A DNA stretch of 64,000 nucleotides from Candidatus Heimdallarchaeota archaeon (GTDB taxonomy: Archaea > Asgardarchaeota > Heimdallarchaeia > Heimdallarchaeales > Heimdallarchaeaceae): positions 64,001-128,000 of the forward strand of contig JAAFKI010000112.1 in NCBI GenBank assembly GCA_021399345.1, in the 5' to 3' direction. Shown here piece after piece: positions 45,602 through 48,990 of this stretch. The notes under the pieces were generated by a model. It saw only the letters and a program-made list of their open reading frames with translations. It had not been told where the DNA came from and did not search any database. The position numbers and the translations under genes were made by a program. Every line of letters begins with the position of its first letter. Positions within the stretch are counted from its first letter, which is position 1.

Positions 45602-45751
45602 TTAAAATGACTGAGATAAAGCAGATAAGGAGAGCAATCCAATTACTATTAAAACACATATGGAGATAGCATAAACTAGAAACATACCAAAATAGGATCT
45701 TGCTTTTTCCATTCTAGCTTTTCTTTTTATCTGATTAATATTTGACATCAT
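45602..45751 (-). CDS. 49-aa single-TM peptide (cassette A); paralog of 47563-47712
   Basis: GAGGTGA RBS; MMSNINQIKRKARMEKARSYFGMFLVYAISICVLIVIGLLSLSALSQSF. Confidence 0.75.
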   Translation of the reverse strand: MMSNINQIKRKARMEKARSYFGMFLVYAISICVLIVIGLLSLSALSQSF

Positions 45752-45925
45752 TTTTATTTCACCTCTTTTGTGATCAGCTTCTTTGTACTCCACCAGAAGA
45801 GGATGGGTACTTTCCTGACCGTGCACAACTGTTTGTGGTGAAGTTGACTAATCTTGCCATGCGTCCTCTACCTAGTTATGGGGAGATGTAGGAAAGAGAA
45901 GCATGGGTGTTTTTTTTTCTTCGGG

Positions 45926-45935
45926 TTTATATATG
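45926..45935. promoter_or_regulatory. TATA element (TTTATATATG), possibly bidirectional
   Basis: Lies ~25 nt from the start of structured sequence on each side. Confidence 0.55.
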
Positions 45936-45954
45936 AAAGTACACATAGAAAGCT

Positions 45955-46335
45955 AGATAGTGTGCGCTTCAGCACCTGCCTGTTTCGCAACTACACAAGT
46001 GGTTGTCTCTCAGTGAACTTACAATGAAACGGGGAGCCTAGCTAGCTCTATGCTGAAGGTCCACTTACTATTCCAGAACAAAGTCTGGATGACTTCCCCT
46101 CAACGCACGTGAGGGGACCCACTTAAACGACGGTTAGAAAGCCTCTGGCAAGTTTAACCAAGTTTCATAACGTGCGTGATACAGGTATCAGGGGAGCAAG
46201 ATGAAAAACTTGCAGCACACGAACATTCATCTTAGCTCAGATCCTGATCCTTAGCAGACGAAGTGTCTGCGGTAGTGAGTGTTTCAGCAAGAAACAATCA
46301 GCGCGATAGAGATCAACCAGATAGAAGGTTGATCA
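45955..46335 (+). ncRNA. Unrecognised highly structured RNA (~380 nt) with a pseudoknot
   Basis: ORF-free and more GC-rich than its flanks, with more than 10 helices. G-U wobbles work only on the + strand. Loop ACGCACG (46103-46109) is complementary to CGTGCGT (46171-46177). TATA box upstream. Confidence 0.78.
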
Positions 46336-46399
46336 AGATATAATCATAAATGCAAGAAGAATAAGAAGAGGAAAAGTGGTTAAATCACTTCTCTAAATC

Positions 46400-46543
46400 T
46401 TATAGATATCTTACTGCTACTAGAGCTCCTCCAAAAACTACACCAAGAGCATATAGAAATACTGGCAGAGCGATTCGGAGAATTCTCCAGAGATGTACAA
46501 CTGGTCTTTCAATTTTATAGATCCATTGTGGTCTGTTTATCAT
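46400..46543 (-). CDS. 47-aa membrane peptide (cassette A); homologous to the N-terminus of 47789-48205
   Basis: GGAGGTGA RBS; MINRPQWIYKIERPVVHLWRILRIALPVFLYALGVVFGGALVAVRYL. Below the ORF-track cutoff. Confidence 0.72.
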   Translation of the reverse strand: MINRPQWIYKIERPVVHLWRILRIALPVFLYALGVVFGGALVAVRYL

Positions 46544-46589
46544 TCTTTTTCACCTCCAAGTCGATTATAGAAAAAGGGAAAGCTTCAGC

Positions 46590-46736
46590 TTACCCTGCAA
46601 GAGGGTATTGCTGAAAAGCTAAACTTAAACGAGCTTTAGATCTGAGGGCGCGACGAGCTTTCTTGAGCTGCTTTAACTCCTTTTGGAGTCCCCTAACCTT
46701 TTGATCCAACAAGTTTGAAACTTCATCATGGTTCAT
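46590..46736 (-). CDS. 48-aa basic coiled-coil peptide (cassette A)
   Basis: AGGTGA RBS; MNHDEVSNLLDQKVRGLQKELKQLKKARRALRSKARLSLAFQQYPLAG; paralog of 48644-48790. Confidence 0.78.
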   Translation of the reverse strand: MNHDEVSNLLDQKVRGLQKELKQLKKARRALRSKARLSLAFQQYPLAG

Positions 46737-46763
46737 TTTTTTTCACCTTGTGAATTCTTTCAC

Positions 46764-46856
46764 ATGTAGGACTTGTTGCGACATCATATATAAGGGGCTT
46801 TGAGTAGGAAAATGTTGTCACAAAGAAAAAGGCTAATGTCGGACTATGTGCGACAT
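46764..46856 (-). promoter_or_regulatory. Cassette A promoter with two 21-bp palindromic operators (ATGTMGSAC-N3-GTSCKACAT)
   Basis: ATGTAGGACTTGTTGCGACAT (46764-46784, abutting the TATA at 46786-46793) and ATGTCGGACTATGTGCGACAT (46836-46856); a further half-site ATGTCGC at 46971. Confidence 0.8.
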
Positions 46857-47017
46857 CTTAAACATATGTGTAAAGGCTTGCACACACGCAATTCACCTAT
46901 TTAGAAACGTTAAACAACAGTTAAAGGGCTTTTCAGATTTGCGGTAAAAATTACCTATAATATTAATAAGATGTCGCCTTTAAGACAACTTGAAAGAACA
47001 AAAAAAAGATTATAAAA

Positions 47018-47458
47018 CTACCCTATTCGATCAGTGGAATCAGCTTTAGATTTTGCCTTAGATGAGGAAGAGGCTACAATCTCTGAAACCTCAGGATAAG
47101 TGGTAACTGTAACTGCTTCAACTTCTTGATCTGTCTCTACTCCAATCTTATGAAGTGCCTTAACACGTTTATCTGTTAAGAAGAAGTCAGCCATTTTAAT
47201 CCAACTAGTAGTCACCAAAACAGGGAAACTATTAAAATCTAATGCACAATTATGGGTATCTTCAGTTAAATCTTGTATTGTATCAATAGCTCCACATTTC
47301 AAACATATTCTTAAGCGAGAAGATTTTTTGTATAAATCATTCATTGTTTCCTGATACAAATGTAAGCCTTGATTAAGCGGAGCATCCCATAAGTCAATAG
47401 CAAAGTGTTTTGCTCGGGATCGAATTACTTTCTTTTTTGCATTAGACATATCTGCCAT
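47018..47458 (-). CDS. CxxCG...HxC zinc-binding family paralog 6
   Basis: MADMSNAKKKVIRSRAKHFA...SRLRICLKCG...HNC...FPVLVTTSWIKMADFFL. Confidence 0.88.
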   Translation of the reverse strand: MADMSNAKKKVIRSRAKHFAIDLWDAPLNQGLHLYQETMNDLYKKSSRLRICLKCGAIDTIQDLTEDTHNCALDFNSFPVLVTTSWIKMADFFLTDKRVKALHKIGVETDQEVEAVTVTTYPEVSEIVASSSSKAKSKADSTDRIG

Positions 47459-47468
47459 TTGTATCCTC

Positions 47469-47498
47469 ATGTATTATTAAGTCCTACATCATTTAAAG
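47469..47498 (-). promoter_or_regulatory. Promoter of paralog 6 carrying the cassette A operator
   Basis: ATGTATTATTAAGTCCTACAT (47469-47489). AAGTCCTACAT is the exact reverse complement of ATGTAGGACTT at 46764. Adjacent to the TATA TTTAAA. Confidence 0.75.
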
Positions 47499-47562
47499 TT
47501 TGTCCCTTTGGCACAAATTTCCTATTCTTGGTTAAAGTATTAAATTTATAAAAAAAGAGAGC

Positions 47563-47712
47563 TTAAGATAAGTTTGCTAGAGATAAAAATGCTACTACAA
47601 ACAAAGCAACTGAAAACACTATGAGTATTGTATACCCCAGGAGTGTTCCTACGTTTGTTCTTGTTTTTTCTATCCACATTTTTCTTCTAGTGTTATTTAC
47701 GTTTTTAGCCAT
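47563..47712 (-). CDS. 49-aa single-TM peptide (cassette B)
   Basis: GAGGTGG RBS; MAKNVNNTRRKMWIEKTRTNVGTLLGYTILIVFSVALFVVAFLSLANLS. Below the ORF-track cutoff. Confidence 0.75.
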   Translation of the reverse strand: MAKNVNNTRRKMWIEKTRTNVGTLLGYTILIVFSVALFVVAFLSLANLS

Positions 47713-47788
47713 TTATACCACCTCGGTTTTGTTTCTAAAAAAATTCGAAAGAAGAAAATGATTTTGATCACTTTCTTCCTCGTTACAA

Positions 47789-48205
47789 TTATCTAACTAC
47801 ATATATGTCAGCATTTGTTTTAGTAGACCTAACTAAAACACATTCTACACCATCAACTATAGATATTCTAGTTAATTCCTCAGTCACATCATCAACTGCA
47901 TCTAATCTAACTAAATCAACAACAGCTGTGTTACCTAAAGCTGCTCTAACCACATATATATCAGCATAATTAATCTCATTAGTTCTGAGTACTTCAATTG
48001 CAGCATTATCTACTGAAGCAATTATCACATATTCAGAGTAATTTTCATTTGCAGCTACAACATTATTATAGGATAAGTTTATACTGGCTAGAGATACAAT
48101 CAAAGCTACGATCAATGGTAGAGATACTAATAATATTCTAGTTAGGTTAATTTCAGGTCTAGTAAAATTTAGTCGAGCTAATAATTCTTTAACAGATCTT
48201 TTCAT
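47789..48205 (-). CDS. N-terminally anchored membrane protein (cassette B) with an internal V/I-rich repeat
   Basis: GGAGGTGA RBS; RPEINLTRILLVSLP then a TM helix; ADIYVVR occurs twice. Confidence 0.75.
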   Translation of the reverse strand: MKRSVKELLARLNFTRPEINLTRILLVSLPLIVALIVSLASINLSYNNVVAANENYSEYVIIASVDNAAIEVLRTNEINYADIYVVRAALGNTAVVDLVRLDAVDDVTEELTRISIVDGVECVLVRSTKTNADIYVVR

Positions 48206-48345
48206 TCTTTTTCACCTCCTAGAATTTTTCTTTTTTCTCCTGAATCTTTTTCAAGTAATTGTAAAAAATTAATGAACCCTTCATGGGCTCGGATTTGATC
48301 GTTCAGAGAGAGAGTTGTTTTAAACAGTGTATTCACCTTCACCAA

Positions 48346-48606
48346 TTAATAGTAAAGCGACCCAAACAGGAGCAATTTTTGAGCAAGTGCTTTGTCCTTA
48401 GCCTTTCTCACTTTGTTCTCTATGCTTTCCCTGGAAATCTCTTTATCAGGTCGGGACTTTTTGTTATCGCGATCAGATAATCCTTCCATAAGTTGCTTGA
48501 TGAAAGAATAATAGAGATCCTCATCAATAAATTCAAAATCATACAAAACTTTCATATTGTCAATTACTATTTGGCGCACTGTTTCTACTTGAACTTTGGA
48601 TGCCAT
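48346..48606 (-). CDS. 86-aa hypothetical protein (cassette B)
   Basis: GAGGTGA RBS; acidic N-terminal half and basic C-terminal half. Confidence 0.7.
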   Translation of the reverse strand: MASKVQVETVRQIVIDNMKVLYDFEFIDEDLYYSFIKQLMEGLSDRDNKKSRPDKEISRESIENKVRKAKDKALAQKLLLFGSLYY

Positions 48607-48643
48607 TCATTTCACCTCTATTTGAAAATGGTAAGACTCTAGC

Positions 48644-48790
48644 TTACCCGTAAATCAGGTATTTCCTGATTGGAAATCTAGAACGAGCTTTTGCTCTTCT
48701 AGTGCGACGAGCTCTTTTGAGCTTATTCAACTCCTTGCGGAGTGCCTTAATCTTTCGGTCCAAAATTATACTTACTTCTTGTTTATACAT
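48644..48790 (-). CDS. 48-aa basic coiled-coil peptide (cassette B)
   Basis: GAGGTG RBS; MYKQEVSIILDRKIKALRKELNKLKRARRTRRAKARSRFPIRKYLIYG. Below the ORF-track cutoff. Confidence 0.78.
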   Translation of the reverse strand: MYKQEVSIILDRKIKALRKELNKLKRARRTRRAKARSRFPIRKYLIYG

Positions 48791-48801
48791 TTCTTTACAC
48801 C

Positions 48802-48990
48802 TCAAATGTTTGCAAATCTCCTCAGGTTCAGGTTAGAGTAGAAGCTAATGGTTGCAGTCAGGTATTGCTCATAGATATCCAAGTTCTTGTCTGAATATCG
48901 GTTGGATAGAGTTTTCATGAGTTTATTGAGATCCTCGTAAAGTCTTCGAACCTCGGGATCCAGCAGTTTTTTTATTTCGTTTTTGTTCAT
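48802..48990 (-). CDS. 62-aa helical protein (cassette B); N-terminus related to the 48-aa peptides
   Basis: MNKNEIKKLLDPEVRRLYEDLNKL aligns with MNHDEVSNLLDQKVRGLQKELKQL; AGGTG RBS. Confidence 0.72.
   Translation of the reverse strand: MNKNEIKKLLDPEVRRLYEDLNKLMKTLSNRYSDKNLDIYEQYLTATISFYSNLNLRRFANI

Follow-up and report, generated by a model that had tools for sequence, protein, structure and literature searches.

In the phage-shock-protein (psp) locus of Enterobacteria, a regulator gene lies divergent from an operon for a cytoplasmic coiled-coil protein and for several small single-pass membrane proteins, among them PspB, of 74 amino acids (aa), and PspC, of 119 aa with a leucine zipper. 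A layout of this kind, in which a candidate regulator gene adjoins an operon of coiled-coil and small single-pass membrane proteins, was found in a 64,000-nucleotide (nt) stretch from a Candidatus Heimdallarchaeota archaeon (assembly GCA_021399345.1, 3.27 Mb, 88.6% complete, genome label G000); this stretch, the window, covers positions 64001-128000 of contig JAAFKI010000112.1 (C41). The names attached to homologs agree with a position in the Heimdall group of Asgard archaea, family Heimdallarchaeaceae, within the clade to which AB_125 belongs. Eight micro-open reading frames (micro-ORFs) of 47-138 codons, all on the minus strand, make up two related operons, A and B, flanked by a DEAD-box helicase gene (DEAD) on one side and by a glutaredoxin-like gene and a FAD-linked oxidase gene (FADox) on the other. 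The likeness to psp is one of layout only: no cassette protein matched PspA_IM30 or the sigma-54 AAA+ family, there is no relation in sequence or fold, the regulator candidate is here a small C2HC protein, and the peptides are half the psp size. We read the pair as paralogous, vertically inherited chromosomal micro-protein operons of one genus that would encode a locally regulated, membrane-associated module, a reading to which we give slightly less than an even chance. The micro-genes, in order of transcription, are:

B1, 48802-48990, minus strand: 62-aa soluble peptide, first gene of operon B, an ORF with a Shine-Dalgarno sequence (SD)
B2, 48644-48790, minus strand: 48-aa leucine-heptad helix followed by an Arg/Lys-rich tail, paralog of A2
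B3, 48346-48606, minus strand: 86 aa, predicted three-helix protein
B4, 47789-48205, minus strand: 138 aa, predicted N-in signal anchor with a repeat ectodomain
B5, 47563-47712, minus strand: 49-aa membrane peptide of predicted tail-anchored type, paralog of A5
A2, 46590-46736, minus strand: 48-aa zipper and basic-tail peptide, first gene of operon A
A4, 46400-46543, minus strand: 47-aa membrane peptide, equal to a bare B4 anchor
A5, 45602-45751, minus strand: 49-aa membrane peptide of predicted tail-anchored type, with a run of T (T11) after it

The comparative data indicate that all eight are real genes under purifying selection. GGTG or GAGGTG stands 4-10 nt ahead of the ATG in 8/8 micro-ORFs; in this genome GGTG is found at -15 to -4 of 2.4% of random 40-90-aa ATG ORFs and of 12% of ORFs of at least 300 aa. 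Both the eight ORFs and their GGTG-type ribosome-binding sites had been proposed in a preliminary description of the window, and all were present, the ORFs on the minus strand and at the positions given. The conserved order and homology of the two cassettes that it had pointed out were confirmed by BLASTP: A2 and B2 share 46% identity with 48/48 residues aligned (E 4e-6), A5 and B5 share 41% (E 7e-10), and A4 matches the N-terminus of B4 with 44% identity over 18 aa (E 2e-4). Similarity of B1 to B2 is confined to the N-terminal zipper (E 1e-3), and cassette A has no counterparts of B1 and B3. At the DNA level the paralogs are 65% (A2/B2) and 58% (A5/B5) identical, codon position three being the most diverged.

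The locus is syntenic in at least 8 congeneric genomes (among them G013, G018, G009, G006, G001, G023 and, at a contig end, G010), with a simpler form in others; many contigs break off at this site. Orthologs, traced down to 30-45% identity, preserve start, SD, frame and length, and their indels are exclusively multiples of three. Lengths are 48-49 aa for A2, 48 for B2, 47-49 for A5, 49-50 for B5, 86-87 for B3 and 62-67 for B1, so that the length constancy first seen between the cassettes extends across species.

Selection was measured by the Nei-Gojobori method on the G000-G006 pair as the ratio of nonsynonymous to synonymous divergence (dN/dS), with a bootstrap on concatenated cassettes. Cassette A gave a dN/dS of 0.29 (bootstrap 95% 0.16-0.48) and B1+B2+B3+B5 gave 0.14 (0.09-0.21). 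In the same pair DEAD and FADox gave 0.07-0.08 and the C2HC genes 0.03-0.10; over all three species pairs, housekeeping neighbours ranged over 0.07-0.12 and C2HC genes over 0.03-0.16, with A6, the C2HC gene behind cassette A, at 0.03-0.08. Gene by gene, dN/dS was about 0.2 for B1, 0.05-0.2 for B3, the most constrained member, and 0.13-0.3 for B5. B4 stood at about 0.7 overall, made up of an anchor at 0.15-0.39 and an ectodomain at 0.8-1.0 in 3/4 pairs. Purifying selection, which the preliminary description had postulated while naming a dN/dS near 1 and a lack of frame conservation in relatives as outcomes that would speak against it, is thus what the relatives point to: dN/dS is well below 1, the bootstrap excludes 1, and frames and lengths are kept in at least 8 species.

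These data bear directly on the view that the micro-ORFs are chance ORFs in non-coding spacer and that the cassettes resemble each other through DNA duplication only. Most of the ORFs do fall below usual gene-calling thresholds, and one further ORF, in the B3-B4 spacer, is indeed non-coding. We nevertheless give this view next to no probability and, judging from the comparative data, regard it as already refuted by the bootstrapped dN/dS, the excess divergence at third positions, the in-frame indels, the conserved SD and start codons and the reach of the orthologs.

The spacer ORF (48202-48345, minus strand) was considered as a ninth gene and rejected. It is a 47-codon ORF with a TTG start and 91% conservation in two close species; in G013 a pair of single-base deletions shifts its frame, and G006 has unrelated sequence there. 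The B3-B4 spacer appears to be conserved as DNA and not as protein.

Synonymous divergence of the micro-genes (dS 0.75-0.9) was judged to lie within the range of the flanks DEAD and FADox (1.07-1.28), which argues for co-inheritance and vertical descent. GC content is 0.31-0.40 and matches that of the neighbours, with no break in composition. By these comparisons the operons are chromosomal and vertically inherited, and we infer that the locus is not a mobile, viral or defence island. A domesticated remnant of an integrated virus or mobile element would account for the density of orphan micro-genes with strong ribosome-binding sites and for an insertion derived from an insertion sequence (IS) inside the cluster. 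We give such an origin only a very slight probability. The best PHROGs match had an E of 0.006 and was to an unspecific membrane family, and IMG/VR, scanned with profiles for three families (A2/B2, B3 and C2HC), yielded no relative. The window is free of tRNA, and the locus shows no integrase, no direct repeat at its borders and no GC shift; the flanks are the same in all clades, the DEAD-C2HC-FADox frame exists already in the neighbouring genus, and the IS fragment is recent and strain-specific.

That fragment occupies 356 nt of the 650-nt gap between A4 and A5:

Putative IS607/TnpB-derived insertion, 45820-46176, plus strand: 356 nt, outside the module

The insertion is GC-rich and antisense to operon A. 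It is absent from G009, G018, G013 and G006, in which the site is otherwise 82-99% identical, with a CACG word shared at the junction; three public runs (X1, X18 and X19) likewise have contigs that join across the gap without it. Copies of its 85-nt end are present in 10 further contigs, frequently at the contig terminus, and related copies were located at G000:C16:2834-3098, C88:52301-52390, C89:9152-9237 and C4:3442-3524. Where contig-internal, the 85-nt end overlaps an ORF of 642 aa at its 3' terminus. This ORF reaches the cut-off for Cas12f1-like TNB (TnpB), and in C89 it is preceded by a MerR-resolvase (TnpA) fragment, a combination that points to an IS607-type element. The right-end region is the usual site of the TnpB guide (omega) RNA, and the RNA fold z-score of the insertion is -2.8. 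To judge from these matches, the insertion is a non-autonomous derivative of an IS607-like right end and a recent strain-level event outside the module. A GC-rich 'structured RNA' belonging to the system had been considered as an explanation for it; this was rejected, the sequence being a mobile-element fragment absent from relatives.

The micro-gene products are predicted to be of three types: cytoplasmic peptides with heptad leucines, a small helical protein (B3), and N-in membrane peptides that are single-pass or tail-anchored. Each of A4, A5, B4 and B5 has a single 19-residue hydrophobic window (Kyte-Doolittle 2.3-2.8) preceded by 5-6 Lys or Arg residues. In the short membrane peptides A4, A5 and B5 the transmembrane (TM) window is followed by 3-7 residues with 0-1 Lys or Arg, and this charge pattern, with the short tail, predicts an N-in topology of tail-anchored type. 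A4 has its TM segment at 24-42 with 5 residues beyond, and B5 has a basic N-terminus, a TM segment at 28-46 and 3 residues beyond. The B4 anchor combines an RPxINLxRhLL..LP motif with a TM segment at 24-42.

Among known membrane peptides, A5 and B5 resemble tail-anchored synaptobrevin/VAMP and Sec61-beta in having a basic juxtamembrane stretch and a C-terminal TM segment followed by 3-7 residues. Pfam Synaptobrevin gave matches below threshold to the two (E 0.019 and 0.11), scoring 15.2 and 12.7 bits where the cut-off is 26.4 and covering only the juxtamembrane and TM segments, at profile positions 52-87. A SNARE-like reading was rejected: about 20-27 residues precede the TM segment, against a SNARE heptad motif of about 53 residues around a central R or Q layer, a PDB profile search of A5/B5 found no SNARE, and Sec61_beta gave no match.

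The short membrane peptides also recall the type I toxins Hok, TisB, Fst and Ibs, with fewer than 60 aa, one hydrophobic helix and a charged end; small size with one TM segment, as found in A4, A5 and B5, is common to many non-toxic membrane peptides. The preliminary description had suggested a toxin/abortive, dormancy or virus-like module, and nothing spoke positively for this part of it: no matches were obtained from PADLOC, PHROGs or IMG/VR, and flanks and dS are host-like. Under a toxin-type reading (a type I-like toxin/antitoxin, abortive infection or dormancy module), A4, A5 and B5 would damage the membrane when derepressed and the other products, or the repressor, would restrain them. 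Their size and single TM segment resemble Hok/TisB-type toxins and holins, the operator arrays described below suggest strong control, and cassette content differs among clades. Even so, a toxin-type function seems to us quite unlikely. PADLOC-DB 2.0 gave 0 families for all 10 proteins (the eight micro-proteins with B6 and A6) at E<=0.1, and Pfam and NCBIfam scans revealed no antitoxin-like partner of a known family. Type I toxins are controlled by antisense RNA and are patchy or mobile, whereas the cassette genes form multi-gene operons that are passed on vertically and keep to one locus. An Rfam scan of 43000-51000 at E<=1 returned zero matches; no conserved antisense or overlapping RNA was found, the sole structured element (45820-46176) being IS-derived and missing from four relatives. 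Moreover, purifying selection acts on each peptide across divergences of dS > 1, the micro-genes have the dS of their housekeeping neighbours, the locus has one set place in the chromosome, and two copies are kept side by side.

The B4 ectodomain consists of six repeats of about 13 aa, each closing with a hydrophobic residue and then Arg, and the sequence and number of the repeats differ in G009, G006 and G007. This pattern, with its fast turnover between species, could be that of a multi-core precursor cut after Arg, within a secreted or surface peptide system, or else the cassettes could supply archaeocin-like cationic peptides with TM immunity factors; at a second locus, members of the A2/B2 family lie upstream of an MFS_3 transporter of 'secretion effector' type. 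We consider a secreted-peptide system very unlikely: the cassette contains no protease, modification or export gene, A2, B2 and B1 have no signal or leader peptide, A2 and B2 evolve slowly and not diversifyingly, and B4 is absent or a bare anchor in most species.

The soluble products are small and helical. In A2/B2, L10, L17 and L21 are invariant and L24 nearly so, and a KRARR..R.K block that follows is invariant or nearly so; B2 carries 18 Lys and Arg residues (pI 11.7). B1 has an N-terminal heptad-leucine helix like that of B2, with no basic tail, and its orthologs (62-67 aa in 11 genomes) share the invariant residues E5, I6, K8, L9, L10, D11, Y18, D20 and L21. The AlphaFold2 (AF2) model of B3 shows three helices with a predicted confidence (pLDDT) of 62, too weak for a fold search; its Atlas model has a pLDDT of 0.52, and ESM Atlas look-ups of B3 and B2 gave no usable match. 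A prediction of the B1+B2 complex (score 0.02, mark 0.32) speaks neither for nor against an interaction. Scans of all ten proteins against Pfam, NCBIfam, PHROGs and PADLOC found nothing at or near threshold, and PDB profile searches with A5/B5 and A2/B2 returned TM-helix and coiled-coil background only.

The micro-genes are arranged with C2HC genes and two promoter regions as follows:

Divergent promoter region of operon B and a C2HC gene, 48991-49299, no strand assigned: five TTACTGCA copies (or complement)
C2HC paralog divergent from operon B, 49300-49698, plus strand: an arrangement common to all cassette-bearing clades of the genus
B6, 47018-47458, minus strand: C2HC (CxxC...HxC) family protein, directly upstream of the cassette-A promoter
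Operon A promoter region, 46737-47017, no strand assigned: three GATGTCGC copies (or complement) with ATGTCGGAC / ATGTAGGAC elements
A6, 44914-45390, minus strand: C2HC family protein of 158 aa, probably a separate transcription unit

Transcription of the B part would run from the promoter region at 48991-49299 through B1-B2-B3-B4-B5 to a run of T (T7, 47550-47556), followed by the C2HC gene B6 and a second run (T8); in the A part the promoter region at 46737-47017 is followed by A2, A4, the 650-nt gap, A5, the T11 run at 45561-45571 and the C2HC gene A6. Candidate TATA boxes lie upstream of positions 48990 and 46736. Spacers between genes within the operons measure 11-76 nt. The T-runs after B5, B6 and A5 suggest that the zinc (C2HC) genes are separate transcription units, and a candidate TTTAAAT at -39, downstream of the operon-B T7 run, indicates that B6 probably has its own promoter. 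Three public libraries labelled metatranscriptomic or RNA-Seq contain short contigs over parts of the stretch and were flagged as probably DNA.

A zinc-family gene does follow each cassette (47018-47458 and 44914-45390), as had been described. The neighbour that is constant throughout the genus is another one, the upstream C2HC gene: it lies immediately upstream of the cassette promoter in every clade that carries micro-genes, usually divergently, whereas the downstream gene is not common to all of these states. The genome encodes 8 paralogs of the family; this contig carries every one, and one was matched in two pieces. Its members carry the CxxC...HxC motif, an N-terminal MP(D/K)I..EK and a C-terminal TSW..L..FF, and C52, C55, H69, C71, T84, W86 and F93 are invariant in 42/42 sequences. 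Haloarchaeal C(P)XCG micro-proteins and Brz are small archaeal zinc proteins with a CxxC knuckle and a suspected regulatory role; the C2HC genes share their small size and CxxC and differ by having CxxC...HxC in a helical domain of about 110 residues. In the AF2 model of B6, a confident one with a pLDDT of 79 overall, this core domain exceeds 90.

A C2HC paralog on the plus strand (44525-44886) is split over two frames by an A missing from an A-run near 44609-44613 (A5 as against A6 in G013), and its G013 counterpart is an intact 120-aa ORF. The cause of the split is recent pseudogene formation or, alternatively, an assembly error in the homopolymer.

The preliminary description had taken the set to be tightly repressed, which would call for operators; both promoters do contain repeated operator-like motifs that are conserved in relatives. 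TTACTGCA or its complement is present in 5 copies in the 309-nt B promoter upstream of B1, against 0.057 per kb genome-wide. Five close species (G013, G018, G009, G006 and G010) have 4-5 copies; G001, G023, G007 and the G008 clade have zero and carry other repeats instead, those of the G008 clade being the words ATGTCGG/TCCGACA, like promoter A. Upstream of A2, GATGTCGC or its complement occurs in 3 copies, the genome background of this 8-mer being 0.004 per kb. Promoter A also holds ATGTCGGAC / ATGTAGGAC elements related to GATGTCGC, and the GATGTCGC motif is conserved in G013, G018 and G006.

In the mechanism we propose, the neighbouring C2HC paralog would bind the operator arrays and control the operon, and the peptides would assemble on the cytoplasmic face of the membrane as a small module for sensing or envelope modification. 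The resulting layout would be comparable, not by ancestry, to pspF<>pspABCDE. Less likely, the basic zipper peptide A2/B2 would itself bind the arrays and control its own operon, acting as a 'reversed bZIP', a dimeric zipper whose basic region is C-terminal, and leaving another role to the C2HC protein. A2/B2 resemble bZIP proteins in having heptad-spaced leucines beside an Arg/Lys-rich segment, and the heptad-leucine helix runs into a RARRxxRxKxR block that is invariant across subfamilies. Without exception the zipper genes head their operon, and they do so in three locus types; the operators are short, partly inverted repeats, and just as there are two different operator types, A2 and B2 have different basic tails. 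Autoregulation of this kind is nonetheless unlikely in our view, as zipper and basic region stand in the reverse of the bZIP order: the basic block is C-terminal to the zipper (L10-L17-L21-L24) in a peptide of 48 residues in total. Beyond a coiled-coil background there is no similarity to bZIP or other DNA-binding families, since Pfam bZIP gave no match for A2/B2 at E<=1 and the PDB profile search reached GCN4/MafG-type coiled coils at a weak E of 0.27-0.86. G021, finally, has the C2HC gene and a TM peptide without a zipper peptide.

Several points weigh against a membrane-associated module under local C2HC control. A regulatory role of the C2HC protein is suggested by its position and by the operator arrays only, and no DNA-binding or other known fold was recognised in its model: searches of the PDB and Atlas gave a best Foldseek E of 1.6, a VIA Z of 5.1 and an Atlas TM of 0.34, none of them convincing. 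An upstream search found no such arrays at the stand-alone C2HC paralogs in the window. The analogy to psp would be one of architecture alone, B3 and B1 have no assigned role, and the B4 ectodomain, near-neutral and missing in many species, may be dispensable. A more specific version of the model, in which a complex tethered to the membrane would be built from reversed-order zipper-basic peptides, tail-anchored membrane peptides and a three-helix adaptor and would signal with a new C2HC DNA-binding family that acts on paralog-specific operator arrays, the regulator-operator-peptide unit having been duplicated and re-specified within the genus, is doubtful at present. Counted in favour of local regulation is the independent association of the small families with local regulators elsewhere, described below.

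To place the two operons in their genus, the families were followed by profile searches. Of 24 genomes of the genus, 20 contain a match to the A2/B2 profile, against 0 of 59 from elsewhere in the class. The B3 profile found 8 clusters, all of 84-87 aa, among 1.84 billion representatives, and the A5/B5 profile found 34 clusters of 46-85 aa in a set of 5.8 billion proteins, the few named ones being Heimdall-group 'hypothetical protein' entries. At the fixed locus the number of micro-genes varies by clade (1, 3, 4-5 or 8):

G000, G013, G018, G009, G006: both cassettes, complete
G001: both cassettes, B without B4
G023: both cassettes, B without B3 and B4
G020: cassette A alone, divergent from a B6-like C2HC gene
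G008, G017, G012, G005, G002, G022: one B-type cassette of B1-B2-B3, a 106-aa ORF and a 51-aa TM peptide
G002: this B-type cassette without B3 and the 106-aa ORF
G008, G017, G012: a tetratricopeptide repeat (TPR) protein after the B-type cassette
G007: B1, B2, a B4-like repeat protein and a 47-aa TM peptide
G021: a single A4-like 53-aa peptide, the sole micro-ORF at the locus
G041, neighbouring genus: DEAD, C2HC and FADox, no micro-gene detected

A single-gene tree of the FAD oxidase, not to be taken for a species tree, unites the genomes that carry cassette A in one clade. In the G008 clade, the ORF between B3 and the 51-aa TM peptide (105-109 aa, with an SD; L080:7630-7950, L081:7774-8103 and L083:7886-8203) overlaps the next start by 4 nt and has no Pfam match; its coding status is that of a candidate.

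Relatives of the cassette peptides also occur at other loci. In G016, G020 and G024, a second type of zipper-basic locus lies between a divergent gene for an ArsR/PadR-like winged helix-turn-helix (wHTH) protein of 216-222 aa and an MFS_1/MFS_3 transporter gene, and encodes either a 54-aa and a 55-59-aa peptide (L054:5698-6063; L055:4511-4875) or a single peptide of 55 aa (L056:4524-4691). In a third zipper subfamily, a 42-aa peptide (G000:C95:503-631; L087:6666-6794) heads an operon with a coiled-coil, proline-rich protein of 445-472 aa and a 223-aa protein, and this operon is kept in many genomes of the genus. Outside the genus, B3-like 87-aa genes were found in other Heimdall-group assemblies as tandem pairs divergent from ArsR-type wHTH genes (HTH_5, 26 bits; L090:1995-2796, L091:5634-6264 and L095), and one metagenome contig has the order B2-B3-B3'.

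A search of the literature on Heimdallarchaeia small proteins and Asgard micro-proteins found nothing relevant. With no relatives in curated libraries or among solved structures, the five micro-protein families and the C2HC family appear to lie outside known kinds. Archaeal annotation overlooks most micro-proteins; here comparative data alone show that eight, of five families, are selected genes, and families without known relatives represent unexplored biology in the archaea nearest to eukaryotes. Depending on the clade, the site is occupied by a lone peptide, a single cassette, only cassette A, or a pair of cassettes whose operator words differ, and these varied loads offer a tractable example of how a regulator-operator-target unit is duplicated and re-specified. 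For the present the practical value is limited, the organisms being uncultured.

Finally, two large TPR proteins are encoded in the window between other C2HC paralogs (27960-29882, plus strand, and 29916-32054, minus strand). They are homologous to the 770-aa TPR protein behind the G008-clade cassette (L080:8201-10513), with 27% identity over 727 aa (E 4e-58), which suggests a recurrent neighbourhood of C2HC, TPR and micro-protein genes.

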